Notes: a model not told the origin generated them from the letters alone. A stretch of DNA of 64,000 nucleotides from Dehalococcoidia bacterium (GCA_034433305.1 DAOUAM010000089.1:3466-67465); one strand, 5' to 3'. Counted from the first letter of the stretch, positions 1 to 28,833 are shown. Numbers and translations are program-made.

Positions 1-974
1 CCACCGTTGACCCCGCCAGCAGGCCCAGGGCCAGCGGCCCTCGCCTGGACACGTCCCTGACCGAGGCCAGCACCACGGTCCCCACCAGGGCACCTATGCC
101 AAAGGCCGAGGACAGCAGGCCCAGCACCTGTGGCCCGGCGTCAAAGACCCTGGCCGTCACCACCGGCAACTGCTGGATGGTGGGCATGATGAAGAAGGAA
201 GGTATGAAGGCCATGGCGATAAGCGCCAGCAGCACCGTGTCCTTCATCACGTACTGGAAGCCCTCTTTCAGGTCTCCGCCCACGGAGTGAGCGCCTGCCT
301 TGTGGCCGGCCTCTCGGTAAGGCATCTTGAGGGGCACTACCAGCAGGATGATAATGATGTACAGGGACGCCTGGATGACGAAGTTGCCGCCCATGCCGGC
401 CAGCACAATGAGAAAGCCGCCTATCATGGGCGCGATGGTCCGCGTGAGGTTGAAGGCCATGGACTGCAGGGCGATGGCGTTCATCAGGTCCTGCTTGGGG
501 ACTGTGTTAGCCACGAGGGACTGGCGCAGCGGCCCCAGGATAGACCAGCATGTAAATGGCGGCGTGCCAGACCTTCACCCAGTTGCCCATGACCAGCACG
601 GCGAAGGCTATGGCCGACAGGGCCATGATGCCCTGGACGGCCATCAGCATCTTCCTCCTGTCCACGCGGTCTATGGCTACCCCGGCCAGCGGGCCGACCA
701 GCAGGAAGGGTAGCGCCCGGGTGGCGCTCACCACTCCCACCAGCACCGCCGACTCGGACAGGGTCCACACCAGCCAGCCCACGGTGACCTGCTGGATCCA
801 CTGGGCCGCGCCGTTGAGCATGGTGGTGCCCCAGAGGAGGCGGAAATCGGTGTGCTGGAGGGCGGTGAAGGTGGCGAGGTTGATACCTTTGTGGCTACGC
901 CTGGCTACTGAGGCGGTGTCGGAGGCGACGATGTCCTGGGGGTTGCTGGCAATGCGCTCGTGCTGAACAGACAT
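1..974 (-). pseudogene. MFS transporter (MFS_3/EntS-like); C-terminal end lies beyond the window edge; reading frame broken near 540-575
   Basis: ATG at 974 opens MSVQHERIASN...FRLLWGTTMLNGAAQWIQQVTVGWLVW...LLVGPLAGVAIDRVDRRKML, typical of MFS TM1-TM3. This frame stops at 507 (...AAIYMLVYPGAAAPVPRG*). The +1 frame then reads stop-free to position 2 as LGPLRQSLVANTVPKQDLMNAIALQSMAFNLTRTIAPMIGGFL...GIGALVGTVVLASV, a clear continuation of the same transporter. Confidence 0.6.
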
Positions 975-1159
975 GTCTTTTATCTTGTACCAGCGCGGCG
1001 TACTCGCCGCGCACGCTATGCCCGGGAAAGCCCCGGGATGTAAGGGCAATTATATTTTCCGCCAGCATGCCTGTCAACGGCGCTCGCACCAGTAGCATGC
1101 GCTCTGGCAAACGGTGGGGCAAGCCTTGTCGTCACTCCGGGCCTGGGCCTGCCCGGGGA

Positions 1160-1519
1160 TCAGGAGTGGCCCTCCAGCAGACGCTCCAGCGCCTTCCGGT
1201 CTGCTCCAATGATGAGTTGCTCGCCCACCTGTACCAGCGGCCGGCGGATAAGTCGTGGCTCACCCAGCATCAGCCGCAGTAGCTGGCCGTCGTCAAGCTC
1301 CTCTCGCTTCAGGCCCAGCGCCTTGAAGGACGGGCTGTTCCACGAAAAGACCTCGGCGGGGGAGCGGCCGCCTATCAGGCGGCGCAGTTCATCCTCGCTG
1401 AACCTCTCCTGGAAAAAGTCCCGCTCCTCGACAATCTCGGCGCCCTTCTGTAAGAGCAACGCTCTTACGTCGCGGCAGGTGGTTCAGCGCTTCCAGGTGT
1501 AAAATCGTACCTGGGCCAT
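1160..1519 (-). CDS. ArsC/Spx/YffB-family thioredoxin-fold protein with in-frame UGA at codon 12 (candidate selenocysteine, U-T-T-C motif)
   Basis: ATG 1519..1517 opens MAQVRFYTWKR, then TGA (1486..1484). The same frame continues TTCRDVRALLLQKGAEIVEERDFF...RLIRRPLVQVGEQLIIGADRKALERLLEGHS* to the stop at 1160. The family N-terminus normally carries CxxC or a single Cys at this spacing. A SECIS-like hairpin lies 15 nt downstream of the TGA. Confidence 0.7.
1450..1468 (-). promoter_or_regulatory. candidate bacterial SECIS hairpin (GUAAGAGC-GUU-GCUCUUAC)
   Basis: Perfect 8-bp stem with a 3-nt GUU loop (or 7 bp with loop CGUUG). It starts 15 nt after the in-frame UGA at 1486..1484. G-U in the apical loop matches known bacterial SECIS elements. 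Confidence 0.55.
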
Positions 1520-1672
1520 GGCAAACCCCCAGAGGATGGTAGCAAATGGACGAGCGGGAGGCAATGCCGGCTGCTGTTGACAGGCCCGTGGGGCATCCCT
1601 ATATTTCAGCGAGGGCCTGGCACCAGGCCAGCGCCTTCCGGTATGCCAGATCTGACAAGGAGTAGCAAGACT

Positions 1673-2851
1673 ATGGCAGGGCCGCTTCGAGTAGGCGTGG
1701 CAGGCGTGGGGCAGCGCGGGCTGCAGCACCTGAACGCCCTGGCGCAGCTCCAGCAGGAGGAGGTGGTGCGCATCGCCGCGCTGGCGGACCCCTTCCCCGA
1801 CAACCTGGCCGAGGACAAGATACGCAAGGCCGCTCCCTCTTACTCCCAGAGGGACGTTAAGCTCTACACCAGCGTGCGGGAGATGATTGACGACGCCAAT
1901 CTGGATGCCATCTGGTTCGCCATCCCGCCCAACCAGCACCGGGGCGAGGTCGAGTACGCCGCCCAGCATGGCCTGCACATCCTGGCCGAGAAGCCCCAGT
2001 CCCTGTTCCTGGACGAGGTGCTGCGCCAGGACGAGGCTATCACCAGGGCGGGTGTGCTGTCCATGGTCGGTTTCCAGATGCGCTACGACCGGGGCTACAC
2101 GGACATTCGCGACTACCTGGCGGGCAAGTGGGTGGCATCCATGGTCATGGTCTCGGAGGGCGCGGTGGAAGGCCACGGCGTCAAGCACACCCACACCGAG
2201 AAGCTGGGCGGCCCCAGGGACCGCGTCTGGACGGCCGACCGGCGCTGGTCGGGGACGTCCATCGTCGAGGCGGGCATTCACCAGACGGACATCATGCGCT
2301 ACTGGTCGGACGATGACGTGGCCTGGGTCCGGGCGGACTACGTGGAGAGGCCACGGGAGCTATGGGACTCCGAGGGCGACAACCCCATCTTCTACACGGT
2401 CACCTATGGCTTCAGGAAGGGTGCGGTGGGCAACCTGATATTCACCAAGCCGGCCCGCTCCTACTACACAGGCCGCTTCGATGGCATTATCTGGACCCAC
2501 GGCACCATAAAGCTGGAAGAAGACTATGTGGACTACCACTACGACGGCGCTGACTGGCCGCCAGCCAGGAAACCGACGCGGGCCGAAGTCCGCAAGGTCG
2601 TCTCAAAAGGCCCCCACACGGTGGCCATGGGCGCCGAGAACACCAGGGCGCTGTCCCGTAGCTTCGCCGAGGCCGTCACGCTGGGCAGGCCCGAGCTGCT
2701 GCGCAACACCTTCCACTCCTCCATCAACTCCCTGGCGGCGGTGCTGGCCGCCAACGCGTCCAATGAGCTGGGCGGCGAGAAGGTGGACATAGAGGAGTTC
2801 ATCCACGGCGACCGCTACGCCGGGTCCCGGCGCCGGCCAGCGGAGAAATAG
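1673..2851 (+). CDS. Gfo/Idh/MocA family NAD(P)-dependent oxidoreductase
   Basis: ATG at 1673 is preceded by AAGGAG. The N-terminus MAGPLRVGVAGVGQRGLQHLNAL is a Rossmann motif, and EKP is present (HILAEKPQS). I trimmed the start from the track ORF 1577. Confidence 0.8.
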   Translation: MAGPLRVGVAGVGQRGLQHLNALAQLQQEEVVRIAALADPFPDNLAEDKIRKAAPSYSQRDVKLYTSVREMIDDANLDAIWFAIPPNQHRGEVEYAAQHGLHILAEKPQSLFLDEVLRQDEAITRAGVLSMVGFQMRYDRGYTDIRDYLAGKWVASMVMVSEGAVEGHGVKHTHTEKLGGPRDRVWTADRRWSGTSIVEAGIHQTDIMRYWSDDDVAWVRADYVERPRELWDSEGDNPIFYTVTYGFRKGAVGNLIFTKPARSYYTGRFDGIIWTHGTIKLEEDYVDYHYDGADWPPARKPTRAEVRKVVSKGPHTVAMGAENTRALSRSFAEAVTLGRPELLRNTFHSSINSLAAVLAANASNELGGEKVDIEEFIHGDRYAGSRRRPAEK

Positions 2852-4836: not shown

Positions 4837-5739
4837 TTGGAGCTACGCGAGCTGAGAAGTTTTTGCGCGGCGGCCAAGCTGAGGAGCATATCCAAGGCAG
4901 CGGAGTACCTGGGAATCGGGCAGCCCACGGTCACCATGCACATCAAGAAGCTGGAGGAAGAGCTGGGGGTGATGCTGTTCGACAGGATCAAGCGGCCCAT
5001 CCAGCTTACCCTATCGGGCGCCACGCTGGCGCGTCTGGCCACCCCTCTGGTGGAGGGCATAGACGCTCTGGCTGCCAGGACAACGCTGGCCGAAGCCGAA
5101 GGCCCGGTCTACATTGCCGCGCCTCACGACATTATCCCCCACACGCTCCTGAGAGTAGTGAGGGCCTTCCGCTCTCTCTATCCCAACGTCCACCTGCGCA
5201 TCCGCTCCGGCCTGAGGACGGACGTGCTGCACATGGTGGCGGAGGGCGAAGTAGATATTGGCATCGTGCCTGGCCCTGAGAAAAGTCCCGCGTTCGACTT
5301 CCTGCCCATGTTCGGGTACGAAAGAGTGCTCATCACCCCCCTGGGCCATCTCCTCACCCAGGAGCCTCTCAGGTCACTGGACCAGATCGCCCGCTGGCCT
5401 CTCATCCTCATGGGACCGCGGACCTATACGCGGACACTGCTGGAGACCGAGTTCCGACGCAAGGGCCTGAGCTACGACATTATCATGGAGTTGGGGGACA
5501 TGGACACCATCAAGCGCTATGTCTCCCTGGGCATGGGTGTGTCCGTGGGGCCCAGTCTGGCCATCGAGCCTGAGGACGAGGAGCAACTGGGCGTCCTCAG
5601 CATGGCGAACCTGCTGCCGGTGGAGCAGGCTGGCATCGTGGTCCTGCGGGGCAAGACCCTCTCCACGCCAGCCCAGAACTTCATCAAGGTGATGCGCGAT
5701 ACCCTTATGCCGGCCCTGCCGGTCGCCAGCAGGAGATAA
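4837..5739 (+). CDS. LysR family transcriptional regulator
   Basis: TTG start. The N-terminal wHTH is MELRELRSFCAAAKLRSISKAAEYLGIGQPTVTMHIKKLEEELGVMLFDR, followed by a substrate-binding domain of about 200 aa. Confidence 0.9.
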   Translation: MELRELRSFCAAAKLRSISKAAEYLGIGQPTVTMHIKKLEEELGVMLFDRIKRPIQLTLSGATLARLATPLVEGIDALAARTTLAEAEGPVYIAAPHDIIPHTLLRVVRAFRSLYPNVHLRIRSGLRTDVLHMVAEGEVDIGIVPGPEKSPAFDFLPMFGYERVLITPLGHLLTQEPLRSLDQIARWPLILMGPRTYTRTLLETEFRRKGLSYDIIMELGDMDTIKRYVSLGMGVSVGPSLAIEPEDEEQLGVLSMANLLPVEQAGIVVLRGKTLSTPAQNFIKVMRDTLMPALPVASRR

Positions 5740-11499: not shown

Positions 11500-12825
11500 C
11501 TACCTGGCGCGGCTGGCCTCGAGCCGGTCGAAGAGGGTGTCCCTGGACTCCCTGGAGAAGAGGCCCACTTGCGTGGCGCCGCTGGCGTCGCTGGCTGTGA
11601 CGCGGAGGATGGTCTCGCCGTCTATTGCCACGGCTAGCTGGTGGCCCCTGGCCGTTACCTGGAAGCGCCGCGTGGTGCCTGGCGCGCCCCAGTGGTAGGC
11701 TGTGCGGCCAAGCTCCCTGAACTCGCCATTGAGACGTTGGCCCACGACCATGTCGCCGACGCCGTCGAACCAGGCCATAAGCCAGTTGGCCTCGTCCTGG
11801 TAGCGGGCCACCAGGCCGGCGTAGCCGCTGCGCCAGGTTATTTCGGCCTCCACCATCACATCGGCCTCGCCTGAGTCTATGACCGCCCGCTGGTCGGTGT
11901 CGGCGGCGGTGGTCTCGACGAGCATGCCCGTGCCGCTGGCCTGCGGCGGGTGCGTGGCAATCTTCCATATGCCCCTGGCTTCCCACCAGGCGCGGCCCTC
12001 GGGGGCGACGTCGGGCGCGTGGAGCGACAGGCTGGTGCCATCCCTGTCCTTGAAGTCGTCAGAGACCAGCACGCCGCTGGGCCTGGGCGGGGACTTCGGC
12101 CCGGCCGCCGAGAGCACCCGGAAGCTATCGAAGGAGGTATTCACGGACTCCCTGGAGAACAGGCCCACGGATGTACCGGCCTGTAGCTCCGGGGCCGTCC
12201 GGCGGAGGAGCGTCGCGCCGTCCACGGCGACCACGACCGCCGGGCCGATGGCCGCCACCTGGAACAGCCGCGTGGTGCCTGGCGCGCCCCAGTGGTAGGC
12301 TGTACGGCCAAGCTCACTGAACTCGCCATTGAGACGTTGGCCCACGACCACGTCGCCGACGCCGTCGAACCAGGCCATGAGCCAGTTGGCCTCGTCCTGG
12401 TAGCGGGCCACCAGGCCGGCGTAGCCGCTGCGCCAGGTTATTTCGGCCTCCACCATCACATCGGCCTCGCCTGAGTCTATGACCGCCCGCTGGTCGGTGT
12501 CGGCGCCCGTCAGCTCCACCACGCGGCCCTTGCCTGCTGCCTGGGGAGGGCTGGCCGAGATGCGCCACACGCCCCGGACCTCGGTCCAGGCGCTGCCCTC
12601 AGGGGCCTCGTCGGGGGCGTGGTCGGCCAGGCGCGTCCTGTCCCGGCCCTTGAAGGTGTCCAGGACCAGCAGGCCGCCTTCCGGGTCGCCCGACACGACG
12701 GCGGGCCGAGGGCCGCCCCCGGGCCACGGCAAGGCCCACGCCAGGGCAAGCAGCGCCCCGGCGGCCGTCAGGGCGAGCAGAAGGCGCAGCATCGTCCCGT
12801 GTACTTGCCTGGTGCCCCGGCGCAT
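11500..12825 (-). CDS. secreted protein with two tandem ~200-aa jelly-roll/LamG-like domains (function unknown)
   Basis: Signal-like N-terminus MLRLLLALTAAGALLALAWA; the start may be ATG at 12792. Two homologous halves each contain DTDQRAVIDSGEADVMVEAEITWRSGYAGLVARYQDEANWLMAWFDGVGD. Confidence 0.75.
   Translation of the reverse strand: MRRGTRQVHGTMLRLLLALTAAGALLALAWALPWPGGGPRPAVVSGDPEGGLLVLDTFKGRDRTRLADHAPDEAPEGSAWTEVRGVWRISASPPQAAGKGRVVELTGADTDQRAVIDSGEADVMVEAEITWRSGYAGLVARYQDEANWLMAWFDGVGDVVVGQRLNGEFSELGRTAYHWGAPGTTRLFQVAAIGPAVVVAVDGATLLRRTAPELQAGTSVGLFSRESVNTSFDSFRVLSAAGPKSPPRPSGVLVSDDFKDRDGTSLSLHAPDVAPEGRAWWEARGIWKIATHPPQASGTGMLVETTAADTDQRAVIDSGEADVMVEAEITWRSGYAGLVARYQDEANWLMAWFDGVGDMVVGQRLNGEFRELGRTAYHWGAPGTTRRFQVTARGHQLAVAIDGETILRVTASDASGATQVGLFSRESRDTLFDRLEASRAR
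11667..11905. repeat. intragenic direct repeat, unit 1 (partner 12267..12505, offset exactly 600 bp)
   Basis: Manual alignment gives 4 mismatches in 239 bp (at 11704, 11716, 11751, 11779). The flanks of the duplicated domain are much more diverged. Confidence 0.9.
12267..12505. repeat. intragenic direct repeat, unit 2 (partner 11667..11905)
   Basis: Same alignment as unit 1. Confidence 0.9.
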
Positions 12826-13010: not shown

Positions 13011-16000
13011 TCAGTTGCCCTTACCCTGCTCCGCCACCGTCACGGGCACGCCCAGCGTCTCGCCCCTCCATTCTGGCCGATAGTAGGAGTAGGCCTGGGA
13101 GGCCACGCCTCTGGCCTGGACCGGGTACAGCGCCCGCGCCTGGAACTGGAAGGCCAGCGACTCGCCCGGCCCCATGTCCTCGATGTAGAAGATGACCTTG
13201 CGCCCGGCCACGTCGAAGCGCTTCACCTTCGGCTCGTCCTCCAGCACCGCCTCGATGGACTCGGTGACCGGCGCGAAGCCCGTGGGCACCGCGATGTCCA
13301 GCACCACCATGCCCGCCTCCATCGGCTCCGGCGGGTTGAAGCCGACCTCCACCTTCAGGGTGATGAGGTCGTCCACCTCCACGCGGTCGGTGTCGTACTC
13401 CACGCTTATGTCGAAGATGCTCTGGCTGGCCTCCCTGGCGCGGGGCAGGTTGTAGCGCAGCACCGCCTGGAGCACCACGTCGCCCTTGCCCCTGGCCTGG
13501 ACGCTCACCTTGCCACCTACCGGCGCCTGGATGACCTGGAGCACGTCGGCGTTTTCGGGCTTGACCCTGACCTCTTTGCTCCAGCCGTCGCCCTCCAGCG
13601 TCAGCGTCATGTCCACGTCGCTCCTGGAGCTGGTGGCGTAGGTGGTCAGGGCCTGGAGGCCCACCACCGTGTCCTGGGTGGAGCCGAAGCCGCCGAAGGC
13701 GTTGCGCTGGGACGCCAGCCAGCGCGAGGCGCGGGAGGCGTTGAGTCTGTCGCCGTGCTCCAGCAGCGCCAGGGTGGCGTAGCCGGTGGTCTCCACGGCG
13801 GCGCTGCGGCCAGGCTGCATGTCGTAGGGCATGGGCGGCCCGGAGCGCTGCGGCACAGGCTCCAGAATGGCAGGCTCATCGCCCCAGTACAGGCCCTCGT
13901 CGCTCTCCTTCGCCATGCCCATGAGCTTCTCGTAGGCGTCGTCGGCCCTGGGGTTGTCGGCCAGCTCCAGAGCGTAGGCCACAATGGCCATGGTGTAGGC
14001 GTCCTCGATATCGTCCAGTTGGCCCTCCAGGTACCCCACGGCCTTCTCGGCGGCGTCCGCCTCGCCGGCCTCCATGAGGGCCACGGCCACGAAGGCGGTC
14101 AGGGCGTTCTTGCCCTGCAGCCCGCCCAGCAGCTCCTGGTGGTGCAGGAAGCCCACTGGCTCGAAGGAGCCGTCCCGCAACTGGTGGTCTGTAATCCAGT
14201 CGGCGGCGTCATCCAGCACGGCCTGGTCAATGAACATCAGGCCCCTGGCCTGGGCTAAGGTCTTGAGGACGAAGGCGGTGAGCCACAGGCTGCCCTCCTC
14301 GTCGCTGTCGCCGAAGGCCGAGAAGCTGCCGTCGGCGCGGCGATAGGTCAGCTCCCGCTGGTAGCCGGTCATCATCAGCAGCTCGGCCCTGGCCATGACC
14401 TCGGGCTTGAGCTGGTTGGTCTCCTTCAGGTAGCGGGCTATGAAGACGTTGGGCGCGAACAGTACCATGTTCTGCTCGCCGCAGCCGAAGGGCATCTGGA
14501 GCAGCCCCTCCAGCCCCTCGATGGTCTGGGTGAGGTAGCTGCCCGTCACGGCGATGAAGGCCCGAGCCGAGCCTTCGATGACGTCGTCCGGCACGCCCAG
14601 GTCGAACTCGTGGGACTTGCCGGCGGCCAGCACCAGGTTCTGCACCGCCTCACGCTGCACGCCCTCCGGCTCCACCAGCAGGTCCTTGATGACGGCGTCG
14701 GCGGCCTCGCGGCTGCGGGCGGTGACCTTCAATGGGTTGCTGCCCAGTTCCTTTGGCCGGATGCGGAACTCCACGCCGCCAATGTCGCTGGCCCCCACGG
14801 TGACGGACTTGGCAGGCTCATCCAGCAGGTCGAACCAGTCGGCCTCCTCCAGCTCCACGAAGATTTCCTGGGGGCTGTCCAGGTAGTTGTACAGGGCCAC
14901 CCTCACCGGGAACTCCTCGCCCCGAATGGCCGAGTAGGGCAGGTCTACCTGGAGGAAGAAGGGCTGGAAGACCCTGAGCTGGCCCTCGGCGACGCCCAGG
15001 CCATGCTCCCTGGAGATGCCCACGGCGCGGAGCATCCAGGTGGTGATGCTGTCGGGGGCCTCCACCGGCACCGTCTTGGTGCCGTCGGCGTCTGTGTCCA
15101 CGTCCAGCCACAGCCAGGTCTCGGGGAAGAACTGGCGGACGCGCTGCACCTCGGCCAGCCCCTCGGGGGCCTGGCCGGCGGCCATGGTCGGCGCTGGCGC
15201 AGGGGTGGCCATCGGAGGCGCGGCCGGCGCGGCGACCGCATCGGCCAGCGCCCGCTCCATGAAGGGCCATCTATTGTTCGCCAGCTTCTCGCCCTCGGGC
15301 ACCGTCTTGTTGGTCATGACCACCACGCCGGCATCCTGGAAGGTCTCCCTGGCGCCCCGCGTGGTGATGGGGCCGATGGGCCTGGCCTCGTGCAGCTCCA
15401 CCTGGGGCTGCTGGTATAGCCGCTCCAGCTCGTCGAAGACCTGCTGGAGGTTGAGGCGGTTTTCGGCCAGGATGAAGACCGACCTGTCCACGGCCACCAG
15501 GCCGACCCTGGCCGGCCCCTGCGTCTGGAGCTGGATGCCCACGCTGTCGCCGGGCCTGACCTGCTCCTGGCTGAAGGCGACCTCCACCTGGTGGGGGTAA
15601 TCGGCCTCGACCTCGAAGGGCAGGAAGTCAGCCGCGACCTCGCTGTTGGGCAGCACCTGGTACACCAGCAGGCGCGACGAAGGCGCCATCAGGTGCGTCA
15701 CGGTGATGGCAATGTCCGGCGACCGGGAGACCTGGGAGAAGATGGCCCGGCCCCGCGATATGACCTCGTAGTAGAAGCTGGAAGCCTCCCGGGTGGAGTG
15801 GACGTGGAACCTGATGGCGTCGCCGACCCTTGGGGTGCCCTCGCTCACCTGCTCCAGGTGGATGAAGTTGCCCGAAGGCGAGTAGCCGGCCTGGAGGGCC
15901 AGCGTGGTGTAGGCCTGGGCCTCCTCGCCCTCGACGCGGCTGGTTGCCGTGGCCTCCAGGTTCAGCGAGACGCTGTCCTCCGGTGGCGTGGTCCTGGCTA

Positions 16001-17234
16001 TGGCCTTGCCCTGCTCCGTGGTGACCCGGACGGTCTCCTGCTCCAGGTTATCGAAGTCCCTGTCCATGTAGGACAGGTTGAGTTGCACCTGGGCGTCCAC
16101 CGGCTGCCCGTCGGGCGTCTCGGTGACCACCAGGAAGGAGAAGGGCAGGCCGGGCTTGAAGGCGTTGCTCTCGGGTATCACCTGGAGACTTACAGGAGTG
16201 GCTGCCACCGTCAGCAGGTGGGTGCTCTTCTCCTCGTAGCCGGTGGCCTTCTCCCTGACCGTGACCTCCAGGGTGACGTTGCCCATGCCCTGGGCGCCGG
16301 GTACGCCGGCCACGTAATGGACCGGCGGAAGCTCGAACTCCACCTGGCCGTCCAGGTCCCTGGTGAGGCGGGCGTACTCTTCCCACTGGCCCACGTAGCG
16401 GGAGGCGACAATCTCCACCTCGCCCACCACGGGCTTGCCGAAGGTGTACTCGGCGGCCACCTTGCCCCGGACAGGCTCGCTGGCCAGCACCCAGTCCTTC
16501 TCGGTCTGGACGTCCACCTCGTACTTGGGCAGCACGTACTCCTCCACCCGCACGTCCACCTCGGCCACGCGGTCGCCCAGCCTGGCGGTGACCTTCCAGG
16601 TGCCCAGGTTAGGTTCGGTGGACAGGGGCATGTCCAGGGACACCATGCCGTAGTCGTCGGTGGAAACGTCCTTCTTGAAGACCTTGGTGCCCTTGGCGTC
16701 CTGGACCTCCACGGTGACGTCGGCCGGCCAGGGCTTCAGGTCAATGTCCAGGGTTATGACGCGGATGTGGATGGTCTGGCCGGGCTTGTAGATGGGCTTG
16801 TCCGTCTCCACGAAGGCTAGGGTGCCGTCCTCGACCCTGAGCTTGGCCCTGTCGGCGAAGCCGGGGCCGCTGACCTCCAGTTCGTAGTCGCCCCGGGCCA
16901 TGCGAGGCACCTGCAGCGGGACGCTGGAGGTGCCCCTGACAACGGAGTAGGACTCGGACACGCGCTGGCCGTCCTTGAGCAGCGCCAGGCGCACGAGGCC
17001 GGCCGCGGGCGCGTTGCCGCTGAGCAGCGAGAGGGACACGTTTTCGGTATGGCCGGAGCGCAGCACGCTGGGCGCCAGCGCCACGTAGCTGTCAGGCTGC
17101 GGATAGCTGGACGGCTCAGGCTCCGGCGTAGCAGGCTGTGAAACATCCACGTGCTTCGTGAAAGGTGGCATGCACGCAGCCATGAATACGAGTACCAGGG
17201 ACGCGAGGGTAAGCAGCCTGGCAGGGGTGGACAT
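13011..17234 (-). CDS. alpha-2-macroglobulin family lipoprotein with intact thioester motif
   Basis: 1407 aa. Lipobox in LVLVFMAAC. Thioester CGEQ in MPFGCGEQNMVLF. It has multiple MG-like repeats and a C-terminal receptor-binding-like domain. Confidence 0.9.
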   Translation of the reverse strand: MSTPARLLTLASLVLVFMAACMPPFTKHVDVSQPATPEPEPSSYPQPDSYVALAPSVLRSGHTENVSLSLLSGNAPAAGLVRLALLKDGQRVSESYSVVRGTSSVPLQVPRMARGDYELEVSGPGFADRAKLRVEDGTLAFVETDKPIYKPGQTIHIRVITLDIDLKPWPADVTVEVQDAKGTKVFKKDVSTDDYGMVSLDMPLSTEPNLGTWKVTARLGDRVAEVDVRVEEYVLPKYEVDVQTEKDWVLASEPVRGKVAAEYTFGKPVVGEVEIVASRYVGQWEEYARLTRDLDGQVEFELPPVHYVAGVPGAQGMGNVTLEVTVREKATGYEEKSTHLLTVAATPVSLQVIPESNAFKPGLPFSFLVVTETPDGQPVDAQVQLNLSYMDRDFDNLEQETVRVTTEQGKAIARTTPPEDSVSLNLEATATSRVEGEEAQAYTTLALQAGYSPSGNFIHLEQVSEGTPRVGDAIRFHVHSTREASSFYYEVISRGRAIFSQVSRSPDIAITVTHLMAPSSRLLVYQVLPNSEVAADFLPFEVEADYPHQVEVAFSQEQVRPGDSVGIQLQTQGPARVGLVAVDRSVFILAENRLNLQQVFDELERLYQQPQVELHEARPIGPITTRGARETFQDAGVVVMTNKTVPEGEKLANNRWPFMERALADAVAAPAAPPMATPAPAPTMAAGQAPEGLAEVQRVRQFFPETWLWLDVDTDADGTKTVPVEAPDSITTWMLRAVGISREHGLGVAEGQLRVFQPFFLQVDLPYSAIRGEEFPVRVALYNYLDSPQEIFVELEEADWFDLLDEPAKSVTVGASDIGGVEFRIRPKELGSNPLKVTARSREAADAVIKDLLVEPEGVQREAVQNLVLAAGKSHEFDLGVPDDVIEGSARAFIAVTGSYLTQTIEGLEGLLQMPFGCGEQNMVLFAPNVFIARYLKETNQLKPEVMARAELLMMTGYQRELTYRRADGSFSAFGDSDEEGSLWLTAFVLKTLAQARGLMFIDQAVLDDAADWITDHQLRDGSFEPVGFLHHQELLGGLQGKNALTAFVAVALMEAGEADAAEKAVGYLEGQLDDIEDAYTMAIVAYALELADNPRADDAYEKLMGMAKESDEGLYWGDEPAILEPVPQRSGPPMPYDMQPGRSAAVETTGYATLALLEHGDRLNASRASRWLASQRNAFGGFGSTQDTVVGLQALTTYATSSRSDVDMTLTLEGDGWSKEVRVKPENADVLQVIQAPVGGKVSVQARGKGDVVLQAVLRYNLPRAREASQSIFDISVEYDTDRVEVDDLITLKVEVGFNPPEPMEAGMVVLDIAVPTGFAPVTESIEAVLEDEPKVKRFDVAGRKVIFYIEDMGPGESLAFQFQARALYPVQARGVASQAYSYYRPEWRGETLGVPVTVAEQGKGN

Positions 17235-18934: not shown

Positions 18935-19089
18935 CGCGGGCCTCCCCGCGCTCCAGGCCGACCTGACAGGGCCACGCCCTGGCCGGCTGATTTCACCCGG
19001 GCATGCACCAAGGGAGCACGCCGCACCCTTTCCGGAGGGGAAGTGTGGAGCAAGCAAGAAAGTCCCCAACGCGGGCGCGGCCTGCCAGA

Positions 19090-20160
19090 ATGGACAGACG
19101 CCGCGAGTTCTCCCGCCGGCTGCGCGAGCAGAAGAGGCAACGTGTCGCCATGGCCCTCATGGGCCTGCTGCTGCTTCTCATACTGGGCATCATCATCGCC
19201 GGGTACGTCATGATCTTCGTCATGCCGCCCAGGCAACTGGTGGTCAGGGTCAACGACGTCCGCTATACCCGGGGCGACATGGTGAAGCTGCTGCGTGTCC
19301 AGCAGCGGGGTGCTGAGTTCTTTGGTCAGCAGTTCAGCGCCGGCACCGAGGTATTCCAGGCCCTCAACACCATCGTTGAGAACGAGATCATCTCCCAGTC
19401 GGCGCCCAAGTACGGCATCATTGTACCGGACGAGGAGATAGACCAGTACATCAGGACGCTGCTGGCGCCTCCACTGGGCGACTCCCAGGACCCGGCCCAG
19501 GTGGAGCGGGAGTTCCGGGAGCGCTACCGGGCCTACCTTAACACCATCCAGCTCAGCGAGGACGAGCACCGCCAGCTTGTCCGGAAGTCCCTCACCAGGG
19601 AGAGGCTGCGGCAGGTCATCGGCGAGAGCGTGCCCAGCGTGGCGCCCCAGGTGCATCTCAACCGCCTCATAATGACGCCCGATGGCGAGATGGATGTCAT
19701 GCAGATCAAGTTCAAGGACACTGTCGCCCCAAAGCAGACCGACGACGAGCGCCGGGAGGCCTTCAAGGCCCTGGTCCGCGAGTTCTCCATGGACAACCCC
19801 GAGGTCATCAGGAAGGGTGGCGACCTGGGCTGGGTGCCCAGGGGCGTATACAGTGACTATGACCATGTCATCTTCGACCTGGAGGTGGGCAAGCTCAGCG
19901 CCCCGGTGCCCAGCGTGGACAACCCCAGGCAGCTTATCTTCTTCCTGGTGTCGGACAAGCAGGAGGCCCGGGAGGTCGAGCCAGAGGACAGGGATGCCCT
20001 CAAGACCCGCGCCCTCCAGGAGTGGATCAACAACGAGCGCAACAGCAACGACGTGTACGCCGTCTTCAACTCGGACATCTATACCTGGATAATCAAGCAA
20101 CTGGGCATATCCTCCACCATCACCCCCACTCCCACCGAGCCCAGCCTGTTCGGGTTCTAG
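19090..20160 (+). CDS. membrane-anchored peptidylprolyl isomerase (SurA/PrsA-like, parvulin domain)
   Basis: ATG at 19090. TM segment MALMGLLLLLILGIIIAGYVMIF. Parvulin-like region GGDLGWVPRGVYSDYDHVIFDLEVGKLSAPV. Confidence 0.75.
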   Translation: MDRRREFSRRLREQKRQRVAMALMGLLLLLILGIIIAGYVMIFVMPPRQLVVRVNDVRYTRGDMVKLLRVQQRGAEFFGQQFSAGTEVFQALNTIVENEIISQSAPKYGIIVPDEEIDQYIRTLLAPPLGDSQDPAQVEREFRERYRAYLNTIQLSEDEHRQLVRKSLTRERLRQVIGESVPSVAPQVHLNRLIMTPDGEMDVMQIKFKDTVAPKQTDDERREAFKALVREFSMDNPEVIRKGGDLGWVPRGVYSDYDHVIFDLEVGKLSAPVPSVDNPRQLIFFLVSDKQEAREVEPEDRDALKTRALQEWINNERNSNDVYAVFNSDIYTWIIKQLGISSTITPTPTEPSLFGF

Positions 20161-20179
20161 AGGCAGCGAGGTCAGGGCT

Positions 20180-21490
20180 ATGGGGGACTCGGCTGACATA
20201 GGCATAGGGCTTCTGGGCATGGGCGTGGTGGGTAGCGGTGTGGCCAGGGTGCTGTGCGAGAAGCAGGAGGAGCTGGCCAGGCTGGTGGGTCGTCCGCTCT
20301 CCCTCAAGGGCGTCCTGGTGCGGGACCCGCGCAAGCCCCGCGCCTACGACCTGCCCCACCTGCTGACCACCAGCATTGAGGACATCCTGAACAACCCGGA
20401 CATCCGCATCGTGGTGGAGGTCATGGGCGGCCAGGACCCGGCGCTGGACTACATTCTCAAGAGCATCTCCCTGGGCAAGCACGTGGTCACAGCTAACAAG
20501 GAGGTCATGGCCCGCCACGGGCCGGACATTCTGACGCTGGCCCGCAAGAAGGGCGTCCAGGTGCTATTCGAGGCGACGGTGGCCGGCGGCACGCCCATCA
20601 TCGCGCCGCTGCTGCGCGACCTGGTAGCCAACGACATCCTCAGCATCCACGCCATCATCAACGGCACCACCAACTACATCCTGACCAAGATGGCCTACGA
20701 GGGCCTGGACTTCGGCGTCGCCCTGAAGCAGGCCCAGGAGCTTGGCTACGCCGAGGCCGACCCCACCAACGACGTGGAGGGCATTGACGCCGCCTACAAG
20801 CTGGCTATACTGTCCACCCTGGCCTTCCGCGCCAGGGTGAAAGACGTGGACGTGTACCGTGAGGGCATCACCCGCCTGGCTGCCCGCGACTTCCTGTACG
20901 CCCAGGAGCTGGGCTATGCCATCAAGCTGCTGGCCATCGCCAGCAAACATGATGGGGCTGTGCAACTGCGCGTCCACCCGGCTTTTGTGCCTTCTGAAGT
21001 CATGATTGCCAAGGTGGACGGCGTCCTCAACGCCGTGGAGGTGGAGACAGACCTGGCCGGCCGCGTGCTGTTCCACGGGCGGGGTGCTGGCTCGCTGCCC
21101 ACCACCAGCGCCGTCATGGCCGACGTGGTCAATATCGCCCGCAACGTGGCGGGTAACGTGGTGCCGCCTGCGCCCCTCAGGCTGTCAGAGGACGTGCGCA
21201 TCAGGCCCATTGACGAGCTGGAGACCAAGTACTACCTGCGTATCGCCGTGGCCGACAGGCCGGGTGTGCTGGCCCAGATTGCCAGGGTGCTGGGCGACCG
21301 GCAGATAAGCATCGCCTCGGTCATCCAGAAGGAGACGGACGAAAAGGCCCAGCGCGCCGAGATCGTGCTCATGACCCACCGCGCCAGGGAGGCCGCCGTG
21401 CAGACGGCGCTGCGCCTCCTCCAGGGGCTGGACGTGGTGTATGAGATAGGCAACGTGGTGCGCGTTGAGGAGTGGGCCAACGCACAGTAG
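20180..21490 (+). CDS. hom: homoserine dehydrogenase with C-terminal ACT domain
   Basis: GIGLLGMGVVGSGV, VVTANKEV, INGTTNYILTKM, GYAEADPTNDVEG.DAAYKLAIL, then an ACT domain (YYLRIAVADRPGVLAQIARVLG). Confidence 0.95.
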   Translation: MGDSADIGIGLLGMGVVGSGVARVLCEKQEELARLVGRPLSLKGVLVRDPRKPRAYDLPHLLTTSIEDILNNPDIRIVVEVMGGQDPALDYILKSISLGKHVVTANKEVMARHGPDILTLARKKGVQVLFEATVAGGTPIIAPLLRDLVANDILSIHAIINGTTNYILTKMAYEGLDFGVALKQAQELGYAEADPTNDVEGIDAAYKLAILSTLAFRARVKDVDVYREGITRLAARDFLYAQELGYAIKLLAIASKHDGAVQLRVHPAFVPSEVMIAKVDGVLNAVEVETDLAGRVLFHGRGAGSLPTTSAVMADVVNIARNVAGNVVPPAPLRLSEDVRIRPIDELETKYYLRIAVADRPGVLAQIARVLGDRQISIASVIQKETDEKAQRAEIVLMTHRAREAAVQTALRLLQGLDVVYEIGNVVRVEEWANAQ

Positions 21491-21517: not shown

Positions 21518-23299
21518 ATGAGGCTTCTTGTCATCGCTTTGCTGGCTGTGCTACTCCTGGCGTGTGGCCGCCCCGGCCCGGAGCAGAAGGCCGCCGTGAT
21601 GCACGTCCCCCAGGACATGGTAGTCCCCAGGCCCCAGTACGATACCTCTCGCCCCTTCCGCGACCTGGTGAAGCCCCACTTCTACGCCACGTCCAGCCGT
21701 GGGGAGCTGGTGGAGGCCAGCGGAGAGCCTGACCTGGTCCTGGTCCGCGAAGGCAAGGTCAAGGTGCGCCTGCGGGACGGCGGCCAGGAGCGCTACCTGG
21801 ACCTGCTGGCCCTGGAGTCCGAGGCCCTGGGCGAGCACCCGGTCCACAAGGTCTTCCGCCTTCAGGCCATGGGCGTGCGCCTGGAGGAGAGGCTGGCCAG
21901 GAGGCTCCAGCCGGAGGACTTCGACGACAGCCTGTTCCACACGCTGCGCTTCCAGTACCTCCAGGGCAAGGAGACGTCCGGCGTCATCGCCGAGGTCTTC
22001 CATGACGGCACGTTCCTGGTCATCCCCTTCGAGACGCCAGAGGAGTGGCGCAGCAGCCAGCCGTCCATCGCCTCCCCGACGCATTTCCACGTGGACCCCA
22101 GGGCGCTCATCGCCGGGGACTCGGCCCTGGCCGCCGAGTTCGAGCGGGAAATCCTGGCCCTGCCCTTTAACGACCAGCGTTACCCACCTGCATCCATTAC
22201 CAGGAAGGAGTGCGACCTCTACCGGCAGGGCCGCGAAGGGCAGGCCTACCAGGACATACTCTCGGCTATCGGCTACCGGTTCACCCCCGCGCACGCCATC
22301 AGCAGGGCCGAGGCCGCGCCCGCATCATTCCCCGAAGAGCTATCGCTGCTGCTGTGGGAGGGCGCTGGCCGCCAGACGCGCTACTTCGGCTTCGACGGCT
22401 ACTGGATAGCCGACCGGTTGAGAGACCTGAAGGCGTCGTGGATAGGCGAGTGCGACACCGCCGGCGGCATGGCCAGCTACCAGGCGGCCCCCGGCCAGAA
22501 TGGCCACTACATCACCGTCCGGCGCTCCCTGGAGCCTGACATAAAGCGCAGGTACCAGGTGGTGTCCATCGCTGGCGATGGCTCGGGCCGCGTGCTTTAC
22601 ACCGCGCCGGGCATCATCCTCATGTCCCAGCCCCTGCCCTTCGATTCAGACCGCTGGGTCATGAGCGTGGAAGGCTGGGGCGGCCCTGGCGAGAACAGCC
22701 CCGCCGACCCGCGCTGGCAGTCAGTCTATATCGTCAACATGGCCTCTCCGGAGGAGTACCGGGTCGTCAGCTACCCTCTGTCCCAGTTCCCTAGGGCGCC
22801 AGCGGGTGGCCTCTACGGAGCGTCAGTCCTGGTAACCGCCGACGGAAAGTTTATGTTCAATACCCTCTATGGCTTCAAGGACGAGGGCGGCGGGCTGTGG
22901 GTGACGGACCTTTCCAGGCGGGACTTCTTCACGGACCCGAGCGCCTTCTCCCGGCTTATAGCCTGGGACCATGCCCTGAGCTGGTTTGTCCTGGAGGTGG
23001 AGGAAGGCGCTTCGCACAGGGCCATGTACATCTTCCTGACCGGCAAGGAGGTGGCCGACGACTTCGCCATGACCGCCAACATTTTGCGGGTGAAGCTGGC
23101 TGGCCTCCAGTCCAGCGTTGAGCGCGCCCAGCGCATCCTGCAGATGGTCGGCTGGAACCCGGTCCCCTTTGCCATCCAGCGCCTGGGCGACCACACGTCG
23201 CTGGTGGCCGTCGAAGCCAACCTGAGCTTCCAGGACTCGCTGCTGCCCCGCGCTACCGGCGTGTACATCGTGCCGGTGGACACCGAGCAGTACCAGTGA
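21518..23299 (+). CDS. hypothetical lipoprotein (593 aa)
   Basis: Lipobox in MRLLVIALLAVLLLACG. I recognise no family. The C-terminal half looks beta-propeller-like. Confidence 0.7.
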   Translation: MRLLVIALLAVLLLACGRPGPEQKAAVMHVPQDMVVPRPQYDTSRPFRDLVKPHFYATSSRGELVEASGEPDLVLVREGKVKVRLRDGGQERYLDLLALESEALGEHPVHKVFRLQAMGVRLEERLARRLQPEDFDDSLFHTLRFQYLQGKETSGVIAEVFHDGTFLVIPFETPEEWRSSQPSIASPTHFHVDPRALIAGDSALAAEFEREILALPFNDQRYPPASITRKECDLYRQGREGQAYQDILSAIGYRFTPAHAISRAEAAPASFPEELSLLLWEGAGRQTRYFGFDGYWIADRLRDLKASWIGECDTAGGMASYQAAPGQNGHYITVRRSLEPDIKRRYQVVSIAGDGSGRVLYTAPGIILMSQPLPFDSDRWVMSVEGWGGPGENSPADPRWQSVYIVNMASPEEYRVVSYPLSQFPRAPAGGLYGASVLVTADGKFMFNTLYGFKDEGGGLWVTDLSRRDFFTDPSAFSRLIAWDHALSWFVLEVEEGASHRAMYIFLTGKEVADDFAMTANILRVKLAGLQSSVERAQRILQMVGWNPVPFAIQRLGDHTSLVAVEANLSFQDSLLPRATGVYIVPVDTEQYQ

Positions 23300-23625: not shown

Positions 23626-26403
23626 CTAGTCCGCCGCGGCGGGCACGGGCGCCTTCTCCAGCCGCACTGGCACCAGCGGCAGGCCGGGCACCTTGAGCAT
23701 GGGGTCTACGTCGGTGCTGCGGTCCAGCTCCGTGGCTAGCTGGCCGAAGAGGCCTGTGACCGACACCATGCCGCGATTAGGCCCCGTCAAGCTTACCCTG
23801 GCCCGGAAGCGCTGGCTGGCTGACACGACCTCCACCCAGTCGCCGTCGGCGACGCCCAGGGCGCGGGCGTCCTCGGGGTGGACCTCTACTACCTCGTCCC
23901 GCCGTATGACGTTCCTGCCGTCCAGCTTCTCCAGCGTCACCTGGCGCTCGGGCTGGTGCAGGACGCGGCCCCTGGCCAGCACCAGCGGGTAGCTCCGGTC
24001 CTGGCGGGGCTGCGTTTCGCCCAACTTTACCTCGGCCAGCCGGGCCTTGCCGCTCGGGAAGCCGCTGGCATAGAGGATGGGCGTATCGTCCATGTCGGCG
24101 GCCAGGCAGGGCCACTGCACCGTGCGGGCACGCATCCTCTCATAGGAAATGCCGCCGTAGATGTCCACCACACTGCTTAGCTCGGCGAATATGTCCTCTG
24201 TCGTCTCATAATCGAAGCCGCTGGCCCCCATGCGCCGGGCAATCTGGCAAAGGGTCTTCCAGTCAGGCTCCTCCTCCGCCCTGGGCAGGACGGCGGGGCG
24301 CAGGAACTGCAGCCGGCGCTCCATGTTGGTGTAGGTGCCGTCCTTCTGGGCGAAGGTCGCCGATGGCAGCACCACGTGGGCATGCTCGGTAAGCTCGCTG
24401 GCGAAGGTGTCCTGTACCACCAGGAAATCGAGCTTCGCCAGGGCGCCCAGGAAGTCGCCCAACTCCCCGCTGCTGAAGTGAGGGCTGTTGCCCATGACCT
24501 GGAGGGCCTTGACCCGCCCTTCGTTGATGGCCGCTGTCAGTTGCCGCAGCGACAGGCCCGGCGTCGCAGGCACGTCGGCGTTCCAGGTCCTCTTGAGGGC
24601 GTTGCGGCCCTTCTCGTCGGACACAGGCTTGTAGCCGGGCAGGTACTCCGGCGTGCAACCCACGTCCCTAGCGCCCTGCTCGTTGGCACCCAGGTAGAGG
24701 GGGTACAGGCCGCCGGAGGGCTTGCCGACGTTGCCCGTGGCCAGGGCCAGGTCTACCAGCGCCCGCACGCACTCGGCGCGGCGCTCCGGTGGCACCGTCT
24801 CCAGGGCATACAGTACCGCCGCCGGCTTGTTCCTGGCGAAAAGCCTCGCGGCTGCCTGCACCTGCGTCTGCTGGACGCCGGTCATGCGCTCCACCTTGAC
24901 CAGGTCGAAGTTCCAGAGGGAATTGCGCAGTGCGTCCACGCCCTCGCAGCGCTCAGACAGGAAGTCATGGTCGTCCAGGGACTCGTCGAAAATGACGCGG
25001 AGCATGCCGCCAATGACCGCCGTGGTGGTGCCCGGCCTGGGGCGCAGCCAGACAGTGGCGTACCGCGTCAGCTCTGTCTCCCGCTCGTCAATGACAATGA
25101 GGGAGGCGCCGCGCCTTGTCGCCATCTTTATGGGCACCGCCGCGACGTTCTGCTCCTCGGTGATGTTGCTGGAGACCACCAGGAAGCACCTGGACCTCTC
25201 CAGCTCCCAGATGGAGTTGGTGCCCGCCTGGTAGCCCAGCATCTCGCCCAGGGGCTGGACCAGTTCCGGGCGCACGTTGGAGGAGACGTCCACGCTGTTG
25301 CTGCCCATGACCGCGCGGGCGAACTTCTGGGCCAGGTAGCTCTCCTCGTTGGTGGCGCGGGGCGATACCAGCAGCGCAAACTGGCTGCCCCTGTACAGGG
25401 CCAACTGCTGGGCGGTGAAGTCCAGGGCCTCCAGCCAGGAGACCTCCTCCAGGGCGCCGTTGCGCCTGACCAGCGGCCTCTTGAGCTGCTCCTTGCGGTT
25501 CACGAAGTCCAGGCCGAACTTGCCCTTGAAGCAGAACTGGCCCCGGTTGGCCGGCGAGTGGATATTGGGCGTTGGCCGGATGACGCGGTTGCGCCGGTTG
25601 ACCTCCAGTTTCATCTCGCACCCCACGGGGCAGTGGGGGCAGATGGTGTTGACGGTCCTGGCGGCCTTCTCCCACTTGTACTGGCGCTCCACCAGGGTGC
25701 CCGTTGGGCAGACGTCTATGCACGCGCCGCAGAACTCGCAGCCCGACTCCAGCAGCGAGGTGCCGTGGGCCGTGCCGATGATGCCGCGCCCGGAGCGCTC
25801 ATTCAGGGACAGGGCGTAGTCGCCCCGCACCTCGTCGCACACCCGCACGCAGCGGGCGCAGACGATGCACAGGTTCAGATCCATGTCCCAGAAGGGGTCG
25901 TCAACCTTGATGGGCAGGTTGCGGTAGTTGTAAGGGAAGGGGCTTTCCAGCTTCATCTCAAGGAACCGCACGGTGTCCTTGAGCTCGCAGCGCTCGTTCT
26001 TGGGGCACATCACGCAGCGGTCGTTGACAGACCTGTGGCGGAGGCAGATGTCGCCGGGGCCGCACAGCTCGATGCGGTGGCAGTTCAGGCAGCCGTGGGG
26101 GTGCTCGGCGATGAGCATCTCCAGGATTCCCTTGCGCAGGCCCACCAGATTGGGCGTGTTGGTGCGCACCACCATGCCCTCGGTTACCGGCGTGGTGCAG
26201 GAAGCTGGCGTGCCGCGCCCTCCCTCGATCTCCACCACGCACATACGGCAGGCGCCCCAGGGCTTCATGCCCGGGTAGTAGCACAGGTAGGGAATGTACA
26301 GCCCGTGGTCAATGGCCGCCTGGAGCACCATGGTCCCCGGCCTGGTCTTGACCTCGACGCCATCTATGGTGAGGGTGACTTGGTCTGGCATATCATGCTC
26401 CAT
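23626..26403 (-). CDS. NuoG/FdhA-like molybdopterin-oxidoreductase-fold subunit with N-terminal 2Fe-2S and multiple 4Fe-4S domains; catalytic Sec/Cys-His absent
   Basis: 925 aa. The N-terminus VTLTIDGVEV...CYYPGMKPWGACRMC is a 2Fe-2S motif, followed by CxxCxxC clusters, CPHCPVGC (MopB 4Fe-4S) and a C-terminal barrel (VEVHPEDARALGVADGDWVEV). The position equivalent to FdhF ARVUHGPS reads SNVRPELV. Confidence 0.85.
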   Translation of the reverse strand: MEHDMPDQVTLTIDGVEVKTRPGTMVLQAAIDHGLYIPYLCYYPGMKPWGACRMCVVEIEGGRGTPASCTTPVTEGMVVRTNTPNLVGLRKGILEMLIAEHPHGCLNCHRIELCGPGDICLRHRSVNDRCVMCPKNERCELKDTVRFLEMKLESPFPYNYRNLPIKVDDPFWDMDLNLCIVCARCVRVCDEVRGDYALSLNERSGRGIIGTAHGTSLLESGCEFCGACIDVCPTGTLVERQYKWEKAARTVNTICPHCPVGCEMKLEVNRRNRVIRPTPNIHSPANRGQFCFKGKFGLDFVNRKEQLKRPLVRRNGALEEVSWLEALDFTAQQLALYRGSQFALLVSPRATNEESYLAQKFARAVMGSNSVDVSSNVRPELVQPLGEMLGYQAGTNSIWELERSRCFLVVSSNITEEQNVAAVPIKMATRRGASLIVIDERETELTRYATVWLRPRPGTTTAVIGGMLRVIFDESLDDHDFLSERCEGVDALRNSLWNFDLVKVERMTGVQQTQVQAAARLFARNKPAAVLYALETVPPERRAECVRALVDLALATGNVGKPSGGLYPLYLGANEQGARDVGCTPEYLPGYKPVSDEKGRNALKRTWNADVPATPGLSLRQLTAAINEGRVKALQVMGNSPHFSSGELGDFLGALAKLDFLVVQDTFASELTEHAHVVLPSATFAQKDGTYTNMERRLQFLRPAVLPRAEEEPDWKTLCQIARRMGASGFDYETTEDIFAELSSVVDIYGGISYERMRARTVQWPCLAADMDDTPILYASGFPSGKARLAEVKLGETQPRQDRSYPLVLARGRVLHQPERQVTLEKLDGRNVIRRDEVVEVHPEDARALGVADGDWVEVVSASQRFRARVSLTGPNRGMVSVTGLFGQLATELDRSTDVDPMLKVPGLPLVPVRLEKAPVPAAAD

Positions 26404-26491
26404 GAGTCAGGGCGGAGGCCCCTTCTCTAACTGCCCTGGACGGGAATGGCCCCAGGCCCCCGCGCTGGGAGCGGCCTGGAGTCAGATGCTG

Positions 26492-28261: not shown

Positions 28262-28302
28262 GCTGTTCCTCGAAGAGGGATACCCGGCTGTCCGTGGCCC
28301 GC

Positions 28303-28833
28303 CTAGTGGGCCTTCCTCCCGTCGTGGCTGGCCTCGCCGCTCCTGAGCGCGGAGACAGTTTCGTGGGCCTTCTCCGGGGTCATTCGGCCCATGAGGCGGT
28401 GGTCCACGCTGATGACAGGGGCCTGCGAGCAGGCGCCGAGGCAGGTATTGTACCTCAGGGTCACCTTCCCGTCCGGCGTGTCGCCCTCGCCCTCAAGGCC
28501 CAGGTCGTCCTGCACCTGCTTGAGGATATTGACGGCGCCCACCATGTGGCAGGTCGGCCCCCAGCAGACCTCCACGGTGTGCTCGCCCGGGGGCGTGGAC
28601 CTGAAGTTGGTATAGAAGGACGCGACGCCCCACACCTCGTTGAGAGTGGTCTTCATGCGCGTCGCCACTTCCTCGATGGCTTCCTGGGGGATATACCCCA
28701 GCTCGTCCTGGATAGCCAGCAGGGACGAAAGGACTGTGACGGTGGGCTGCTCCTGAGAGGCTATGGCCTTCCTCACCCGCTCGATGATGGCCTCATGCCC
28801 GGCGGTCAATGGCGCGGCCTCCGCAACTTGCAA
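28303..28833 (-). CDS. NuoE-like 2Fe-2S subunit
   Basis: TTG start. VEVCWGPTCHMVG...YNTCLGACSQAPV carries the NuoE Cys pattern. Confidence 0.9.
   Translation of the reverse strand: MQVAEAAPLTAGHEAIIERVRKAIASQEQPTVTVLSSLLAIQDELGYIPQEAIEEVATRMKTTLNEVWGVASFYTNFRSTPPGEHTVEVCWGPTCHMVGAVNILKQVQDDLGLEGEGDTPDGKVTLRYNTCLGACSQAPVISVDHRLMGRMTPEKAHETVSALRSGEASHDGRKAH

Follow-up and report, generated by a model that had tools for sequence, protein, structure and literature searches.

An ArsC/Spx-fold gene divided by an in-frame UGA in Dehalococcoidia is a probable UxxC selenoprotein gene

Results

One ArsC/Spx-fold gene is annotated as two fragments

The stretch of Dehalococcoidia DNA analysed here, 64 kb long and referred to as the window, carries on its minus strand at 1160..1519 a complete coding sequence for a 119-residue protein of the ArsC/Spx fold, as judged from its translation, a Pfam ArsC match and alignment to Spx structures. 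The gene opens with an ATG at 1519..1517, which is separated by a 6-nt spacer from a GGGGG run (1530..1526, minus) that resembles a Shine-Dalgarno sequence and presumably acts as one. This run is partly kept in the closest relatives, as GGGGG in loci L088–L090 and as GGGAG in L091 and L092. Eleven N-terminal codons (1487..1519), reading MAQVRFYTWKR, lead to an in-frame TGA at 1484..1486, the predicted selenocysteine (Sec) codon and residue 12 of a putative U-T-T-C motif; a TGC at 1475..1477 encodes Cys15, the predicted resolving Cys of the UxxC pair. Past the TGA, the same frame continues for 107 codons, TTCRDVRALLLQKG...LEGHS, and ends at a second TGA (1162..1160). The ORF list cuts this gene in two, assigning its beginning to a 265-aa shadow ORF (1484..2281, minus) and the remainder to a 99-aa ORF with a TTG start (1160..1459, minus). 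A previous inspection of the DNA, hereafter the sequence-only reading, had proposed that one gene is hidden by this arrangement. When the sequence was re-read, the coordinates it gave for the start, the frame, the TGA and the stop were all reproduced, and its description of the split into the tail of the 265-aa ORF and the TTG-started ORF proved exact.

Directly downstream of the ArsC-like gene lies a gene for an MFS transporter (53..974, minus), which extends past the start of the window and is split over two frames. Residues 1–145 of a 433-aa orthologue match 974..540, and residues 147–313 match 553..53 in another frame; a frameshift is thus implied near 540–553, reflecting either a pseudogene or an assembly indel. 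Further away, the minus strand holds a three-gene cluster (23626..28833) that looks like a soluble NAD-linked formate dehydrogenase or NuoEFG module, with a NuoE-like gene (28303..28833), a NuoF-like gene (26492..28261) and a gene for a 925-aa NuoG/molybdopterin oxidoreductase (23626..26403). This large subunit is not a Sec form, because its reading frame is uninterrupted. A MoaA-like gene occupies 48593..49609. The window also encodes a 1407-residue bacterial alpha-2-macroglobulin (13011..17234, minus) whose set of MG, bait-region, TED and receptor-binding domains is complete, and large secreted proteases, namely a subtilase (55361..58465) and an InhA-like protein (58764..60791). Three ORFs of 441, 593 and 674 aa (11500..12825, minus; 21518..23299, plus; 52661..54685, plus) have a strong coding composition and gave no Pfam match at E 1e-5.

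The UGA codon and the sequence on both sides of it are conserved

Among 5.8 billion proteins searched, 244 homologues were found, and nearly all of those listed are 89–100 residues long and cover only about 80% of the query, which indicates gene calls begun downstream of an in-frame stop. Truncated database entries mostly begin with 'MRA...' or 'MKA...', about 18 nt past the TGA (L001–L080). At the DNA level, scanning bacterial genomes at one per species yielded 159 loci. The best 80 of these were examined; all come from metagenome-assembled genomes that carry the label Dehalococcoidia, SAR202 or Chloroflexota. In 79 of these best 80 loci a TGA stands opposite the window TGA, and in the remaining one (L005) a TGC. 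Complete Dehalococcoidia chromosomes with orthologues exist as well, OZ240240.1 and OZ244792.1 being examples. The TGA loci have a short open stretch upstream, mostly Met-started and of the type (F/Y/L)-Y-(T/W)-W-x-(R/K), and Tyr at −5 and Trp at −3 from the TGA are invariant across the 80 TGA loci. Over the six codons upstream of the TGA, entropy is 0.50, 0.67 and 1.23 at codon positions 1, 2 and 3, respectively. Because variation is concentrated at third positions, these codons appear to be translated, and the suggestion that the eleven upstream codons are a conserved part of the gene is borne out by this coding-like pattern of change together with the two fixed aromatic residues. A distant metagenome relative that also carries TGA, L087, has the motif U-T-T-C-S (about 1030..1090).

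Full-length Cys forms are rare; Cys occupies the TGA position in four relatives: the full-length proteins P0049 and P0121, which are the two full-length Cys forms of the clade among the database matches listed; locus L005; and L086, a further Cys form from the metagenome scan. The expectation that Cys-containing homologues would place Cys opposite the TGA was thus confirmed, and the family forms a Sec/Cys pair, in that Cys homologues exist and the sequence on both sides of the UGA is conserved. Moreover, near-identical relatives are represented by five independent assemblies (three sequencing runs and two NCBI metagenome assemblies), and all five retain the TGA along with the ATG and the downstream hairpin described below, even though their intergenic DNA upstream has diverged. 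A sequencing error is thereby excluded as the source of the TGA, and the concern that it might be a misread TGC or TGT can be set aside.

If the TGA were instead a true stop, the locus would hold a pseudogene, or an 11-residue peptide followed by a separate 99-residue protein starting at TTG 1459. Gene callers have annotated almost every database entry in this way, and the frameshifted MFS gene next door indicates either some decay of the genome or some error in the assembly. However, that 79 species retain the TGA at this codon, flanked on both sides by sequence under purifying selection, is not what this reading predicts, and the structural and RNA-level data presented below also speak against it.

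The upstream codons encode the first strand of a thioredoxin-type fold

For profile searches, the 119-residue product was translated with Cys at the UGA position. It matched Pfam ArsC (PF03960) over residues 7–112, which takes in the UGA position, with an E-value of 8.6e-15 and a score of 55.3 bits against the Pfam gathering threshold of 24. Among solved structures, Bacillus Spx proteins were the best matches (E about 4e-10, residues 3–115). In these alignments U12 and C15 coincide with the Spx redox pair C10/C13, and U12 also coincides with Cys12 of ArsC. Assignment to the ArsC/Spx family with the UGA at the position of the first redox Cys, as put forward in the sequence-only reading, is thus supported by both the Pfam match and the Spx alignment.

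In a confident AlphaFold model of P0049, the full-length homologue with Cys (mean pLDDT 92.4), β-strand 1 spans residues 4–8 and is followed immediately by the CxxC motif at the N-terminal end of helix 1. Foldseek comparison of this Cys-form model identified Spx, YffB and ArsC as the closest solved folds (TM 0.84–0.87). Together, the P0049 model and the alignment to Spx structures indicate that the eleven codons before the TGA form an integral core strand. The 99-aa ORF would lack both strand 1 and the active site; termination at the TGA would accordingly leave a truncated product without core strand 1 and without the whole active-site motif. Within the clade (87 sequences), the redox core is kept: U/C-x-x-C, including Cys15, and an Arg-Pro dipeptide are invariant, and the residue before Arg-Pro is Arg in 83 sequences and Lys in the others.

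The clade is set apart from curated Spx and ArsC families

The window protein and ten other diverse clade members were scored with curated family models. For the NCBIfam model NF041106, named ArsC family (seleno)protein, the window protein reached 40.4 bits and the ten others 35–42 bits, all under the curated cutoff of 85. TIGR01617 (Spx/MgsR) was the top-scoring model for the window protein and for all ten clade members, with 57.8 bits for the former and 56.6–73.8 bits for the latter, again all below the cutoff, which is 75.05. For TIGR00014 (glutaredoxin-coupled ArsC), with a cutoff of 106, the window protein scored 37.2 bits and the clade 36–49 bits. The clade therefore passes no curated selenoprotein, Spx or ArsC model tested.

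The Spx/MgsR proteins are the closest match in sequence and fold (B. subtilis Spx, PDB 1z3e and 3gfk; TM 0.84). They share with the clade the position of the CxxC switch, and the R-R-P motif beside the active site is conserved. However, the C-terminal extension found in Spx is missing from the window protein (about 119 versus 131 residues), and the clade, besides falling below the TIGR01617 cutoff, is without equivalents of two functional residues of Spx. In Spx, Gly52 is required for binding to the RNA polymerase α-CTD, and Arg60 and Lys62 are needed for transcriptional activation (PMC2801614). In the 87 clade sequences, Gly never occurs at the position aligned with Gly52, where Pro, Ser, Ala, Lys or other residues stand instead; the two residues preceding it are deleted in all 87. 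The position aligned with Lys62 is Pro in 86 of the 87. At the position aligned with Arg60 of Spx, 56 sequences have Arg, 25 have Asn and three have Lys, the window protein being among those with Asn. A role as a Spx-type transcription regulator was rejected on the grounds that the Gly52 and Lys62 determinants are missing from the clade. We know of no Spx-family member that contains Sec.

The glutaredoxin-coupled arsenate reductase of plasmid R773 (PDB 1i9d) likewise shares its fold with the window protein (TM 0.86). Its catalytic set we take to be Cys12 with the triad Arg60, Arg94 and Arg107. In an alignment with the R773 sequence, verified against PDB 1i9d, Cys12 coincides with U12 and Arg94-Pro95 with Arg93-Pro94 of the window protein, whereas Arg107 falls in a 12-residue segment that is missing from the clade, and Arg60 aligns with Ser. 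The active-site motifs also differ, being CxxS in ArsC, or UxxS in the Sargasso Sea selenoprotein form, and UxxC in the clade. There are no ars genes near the gene in the 64-kb window. A classical arsenate reductase was rejected as well, given the missing equivalents of Arg107 and Arg60.

A conserved hairpin follows the UGA

Starting 15 nt after the UGA, the mRNA can form a perfect 8-bp hairpin, GUAAGAGC-GUU-GCUCUUAC (1450..1468, minus), with its 5′ arm at 1468..1461, the GUU loop at 1460..1458 and the 3′ arm at 1457..1450, just as the sequence-only reading had described it. The hairpin alone has a folding energy of −9.0 kcal/mol, and a local 26-nt segment −10.5 kcal/mol. A single-sequence fold of a 61-nt window segment was no better than those of shuffled sequences (z = −0.19), and the MFE structure of the window favours a competing, overlapping hairpin, GCGACGU-AAGA-GCGUUGC. 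Searches against Rfam, at the gathering threshold and at E up to 10, gave no SECIS-type match. Because the window sequence alone is unremarkable, the significance of the hairpin has to be judged from comparative and recoding tests.

The comparative set comprised 80 TGA sequences (the window and 79 loci) in an ungapped alignment. Across this set, the offset of the hairpin from the UGA is constant while its sequence differs, with arm pairs such as GUAAGAGC/GCUCUUAC, GUGAAAGC/GCUUUCAC and GCGAGGG/CUCUCGC. Pairing was found in 89.1% of cells, versus 34–52% when the 3′ arm was slid by 1–3 columns. The 14–15 rows that appear unpaired belong to one subgroup of relatives with a bulged A in the 5′ arm and pair in a shifted register. 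Compensatory changes occur at four of the eight pairs; at one of these, 38 sequences have A-U and 37 have G-C. The loop opens with a base (+26) that is a third codon position and is G in all 80 sequences; the next is U in 57 and G in 23; and the third-codon base at +29 is G in 77. Third-position entropy drops to 0.71 within the hairpin, compared with 1.23–1.51 in the flanking codons.

Since the hairpin sits within conserved coding sequence, a synonymous-recoding control was used. Only one of 500 synonymous recodings of the window peptide reaches 8/8 pairs (mean 4.8), and the TGA loci show a median z of −2.2 for local stability against their recodings. The local stability of the Cys locus L005 is indistinguishable from that of its own recodings, and neither of the two Cys-form loci with readable DNA, L005 and L086, a small number of controls, has a hairpin at the matching position.

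The published bSECIS consensus specifies a loop of 3–9 nt, an upper stem of 4–16 bp, a G as the first or second loop base, with G or U usually next, a UGA-to-loop distance of 16–37 nt and an energy no higher than −7.5 kcal/mol (PMC13188914). The window hairpin fits all four bSECIS criteria (3-nt loop and 8-bp stem; GUU; 23 nt; −9.0 kcal/mol), as do 77 of the 80 loci overall, and the other three deviate in energy only (−6.9 to −7.4 kcal/mol). Hairpins of the relatives have loops of 3 or 5 nt, with G second in the 5-nt loops, and stems of 6–8 bp; the UGA lies 23 nt from the loop in the window, as in 70 loci overall, and 22 nt from it in 10. The earlier expectation that the hairpin would be conserved in orthologues carrying TGA is thus upheld by the compensatory changes and by the agreement with the published consensus. 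The clade element departs from the bacterial SECIS consensus in having no well-supported lower stem and, in one subgroup, in its bulged A. An extended lower stem, in which the Cys/Arg codons would pair with a segment about 40 nt downstream, was considered and discarded, as just 62.6% of cells pair. In the distant metagenome relative L085, which carries TGA, a two-hairpin arrangement after the UGA replaces the conserved one (about 1040..1100), and the SECIS may have been remodelled in the L085 and L087 branches. On the whole, the comparative data support a function of the hairpin as a SECIS, with predicted SelB binding and Sec insertion.

This RNA-level constraint would be needless for a plain stop codon. 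In addition, gene callers mostly place the internal start at a GTG codon inside the stem, and their choice varies between loci; as the GTG (Val) that callers use forms the first stem bases, the annotated start is an artefact that the hairpin sequence creates. Taken with the 79-species conservation of the TGA and the structural cost of truncation, these observations make termination at codon 12 most unlikely.

The UGA is probably decoded as selenocysteine

The evidence above leads us to regard the mis-annotated gene as real and as a single gene, with its UGA very probably recoded as Sec; the candidate UxxC selenoprotein of the sequence-only reading is supported by the TGA in 79 of 80 loci, the Cys alignment and the covarying hairpin. 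We propose a plausible mechanism for its synthesis. Translation would open at ATG 1519, and the ribosome would meet the UGA at codon 12. The hairpin located 15 nt downstream, with its 8-bp stem and GUU loop, would recruit SelB together with Sec-tRNA(Sec). Sec would then be inserted at codon 12, and translation would proceed to the ordinary UGA stop at 1162..1160, which is followed by no such hairpin; no notable structure was found downstream of this terminal UGA. The mature U12-T-T-C15 protein would most likely cycle between selenol/thiol and selenenylsulfide states. Sec insertion, the SelB mechanism and this redox role are what we infer from gene structure, conservation and fold.

UGA is reassigned in some uncultured bacterial lineages. 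A general reading of the codon, either through a reassigned code (Trp or Gly) or through SECIS-independent near-cognate read-through with the hairpin being incidental, would likewise give a full-length product. In the window, however, TGA acts as an ordinary stop that terminates 23 of 53 predicted genes, the ArsC-like gene included. Furthermore, the position aligns with Cys, not with Trp or Gly, in the Cys-form relatives, and the hairpin covaries and fits the SECIS consensus. We therefore give this reading hardly any weight.

A subtler possibility is that this hairpin and SelB do recode the UGA, but that a tRNA of the tRNA-ReC type inserts Cys, which would yield an ordinary CxxC protein. Such tRNA-ReC-like tRNAs are non-canonical, charged with Cys, read by SelB and decode UGA with a downstream SECIS, and they are described as a limitation inherent in calling Sec by bioinformatics (PMC13582414). 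Nothing in the window separates Cys from Sec insertion at the UGA. However, tRNA-ReC is present in a minority of genomes, where it occurs alongside canonical tRNA-Sec (PMC13582414), and the TGA and SECIS have been kept in 79 of 80 species even though one TGA-to-TGC change would yield Cys. Such retention suggests that the residue is not simply Cys, and we consider insertion of Cys improbable, if somewhat less so than a true stop. Sec insertion remains the preferred reading.

The Sec machinery was sought in the window and around related loci. ARAGORN found no tRNA genes in the 64-kb window; selA, selB and selD were absent among the 40 window ORFs scanned with Pfam, which included all size-matching ORFs; and a scan of the flanks of 60 related loci yielded no tRNA-Sec. 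The 64-kb window revealed no further convincing TGA of the Sec type. Chloroflexi have been reported to carry tRNA-Sec and selenoproteins (PMC5389517, PMC1794560, PMC13582414). An 8/4 acceptor/T-stem form of tRNA-Sec is also reported for Chloroflexi. Based on these reports for the phylum and on the conservation argument, the organism presumably decodes Sec.

Discussion

The sequence-only reading was correct in noting that ArsC-like selenoproteins had been predicted from metagenomes. The analysis of the GOS metagenomes in 2008 recorded 'Arsenate reductase 2' (cd03032, UxxC) with 42 Sec and 238 Cys sequences, and counted it among 51 families that it called previously described (PMC2398784). Later catalogues retain an 'arsenate reductase-like protein' (PMC9312934; PMC13188914), and one of them maps the 'arsenate reductase-like' selenoprotein to NCBIfam NF041106 (PMC13188914). 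The window protein has in common with 'Arsenate reductase 2' the ArsC/Spx thioredoxin fold, the N-terminal UxxC with its predicted Sec and the downstream SECIS, and both that family and the clade are known from sequence analysis alone. In the GOS family, however, Cys forms outnumber Sec forms (238 to 42), whereas the clade has the predicted Sec in 79 of 80 species. With scores of 35–42 bits against a cutoff of 85, the clade also lies outside the curated NF041106 model. The kind of protein is thus already known, and the clade is a member of that kind, at most a separate subfamily.

As to function, the best inference from fold and motif is that the window encodes a small redox protein of the selenol/thiol type, a predicted reductase or redox carrier, and the label 'oxidoreductase' is to be understood in the same sense. 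Gene neighbourhood is variable. In both the window and the closest relatives, the ArsC-like gene is flanked on one side by a divergently transcribed GFO/IDH/MocA oxidoreductase gene and on the other by the MFS transporter gene; in more distant relatives, it follows a SurA-like gene and a homoserine dehydrogenase gene and precedes one for a short-chain dehydrogenase (SDR). No consistent functional partner emerged across the neighbourhoods of the window and the relatives' loci.

Two further features of these neighbourhoods were observed. The SurA-like gene and the homoserine dehydrogenase gene following it stand immediately upstream of the ArsC-like selenoprotein gene in about 30 Dehalococcoidia loci; in the window this pair is found at 19003..21490 on the plus strand, about 18 kb from the ArsC-like gene, which appears to have been relocated. 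In L081 and L082, relatives of the Cys-form branch, the ArsC-like gene is immediately preceded on its own strand by a LysR-type regulator gene (1..361). The window has a LysR gene at 4837..5739, three genes off and on the opposite strand from the ArsC-like gene, which may be a coincidence.

We also entertain, with considerable reserve, the idea that the clade is a distinct Spx-like subfamily, separate from the catalogued ArsC-like selenoproteins, that has lost the RNA-polymerase-binding determinants, has nearly fixed Sec in Dehalococcoidia/SAR202 and performs a lineage-specific, selenium-dependent redox function. Such a subfamily is possible, although we would not presume it.

The finding leaves the mechanism of selenoprotein synthesis, as it is understood, unchanged. 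Its practical consequence concerns annotation: almost all clade members listed in the searches are annotated as 89–100-residue fragments without the active site, and because NF041106 does not reach them, these genes will stay mis-called. The 80-species alignment provides a natural example of a SECIS inside conserved coding sequence, in which RNA-level and protein-level constraint can be separated at single-nucleotide resolution. For the organisms themselves, the gene probably marks a wide range of Dehalococcoidia/SAR202 genomes as Sec users, which bears on selenium requirement, as these bacteria are abundant in the oceans and the subsurface. If the clade does prove to be a distinct subfamily, its members could sense redox state through Sec or act as a dedicated reductase in this abundant, largely uncultured lineage.
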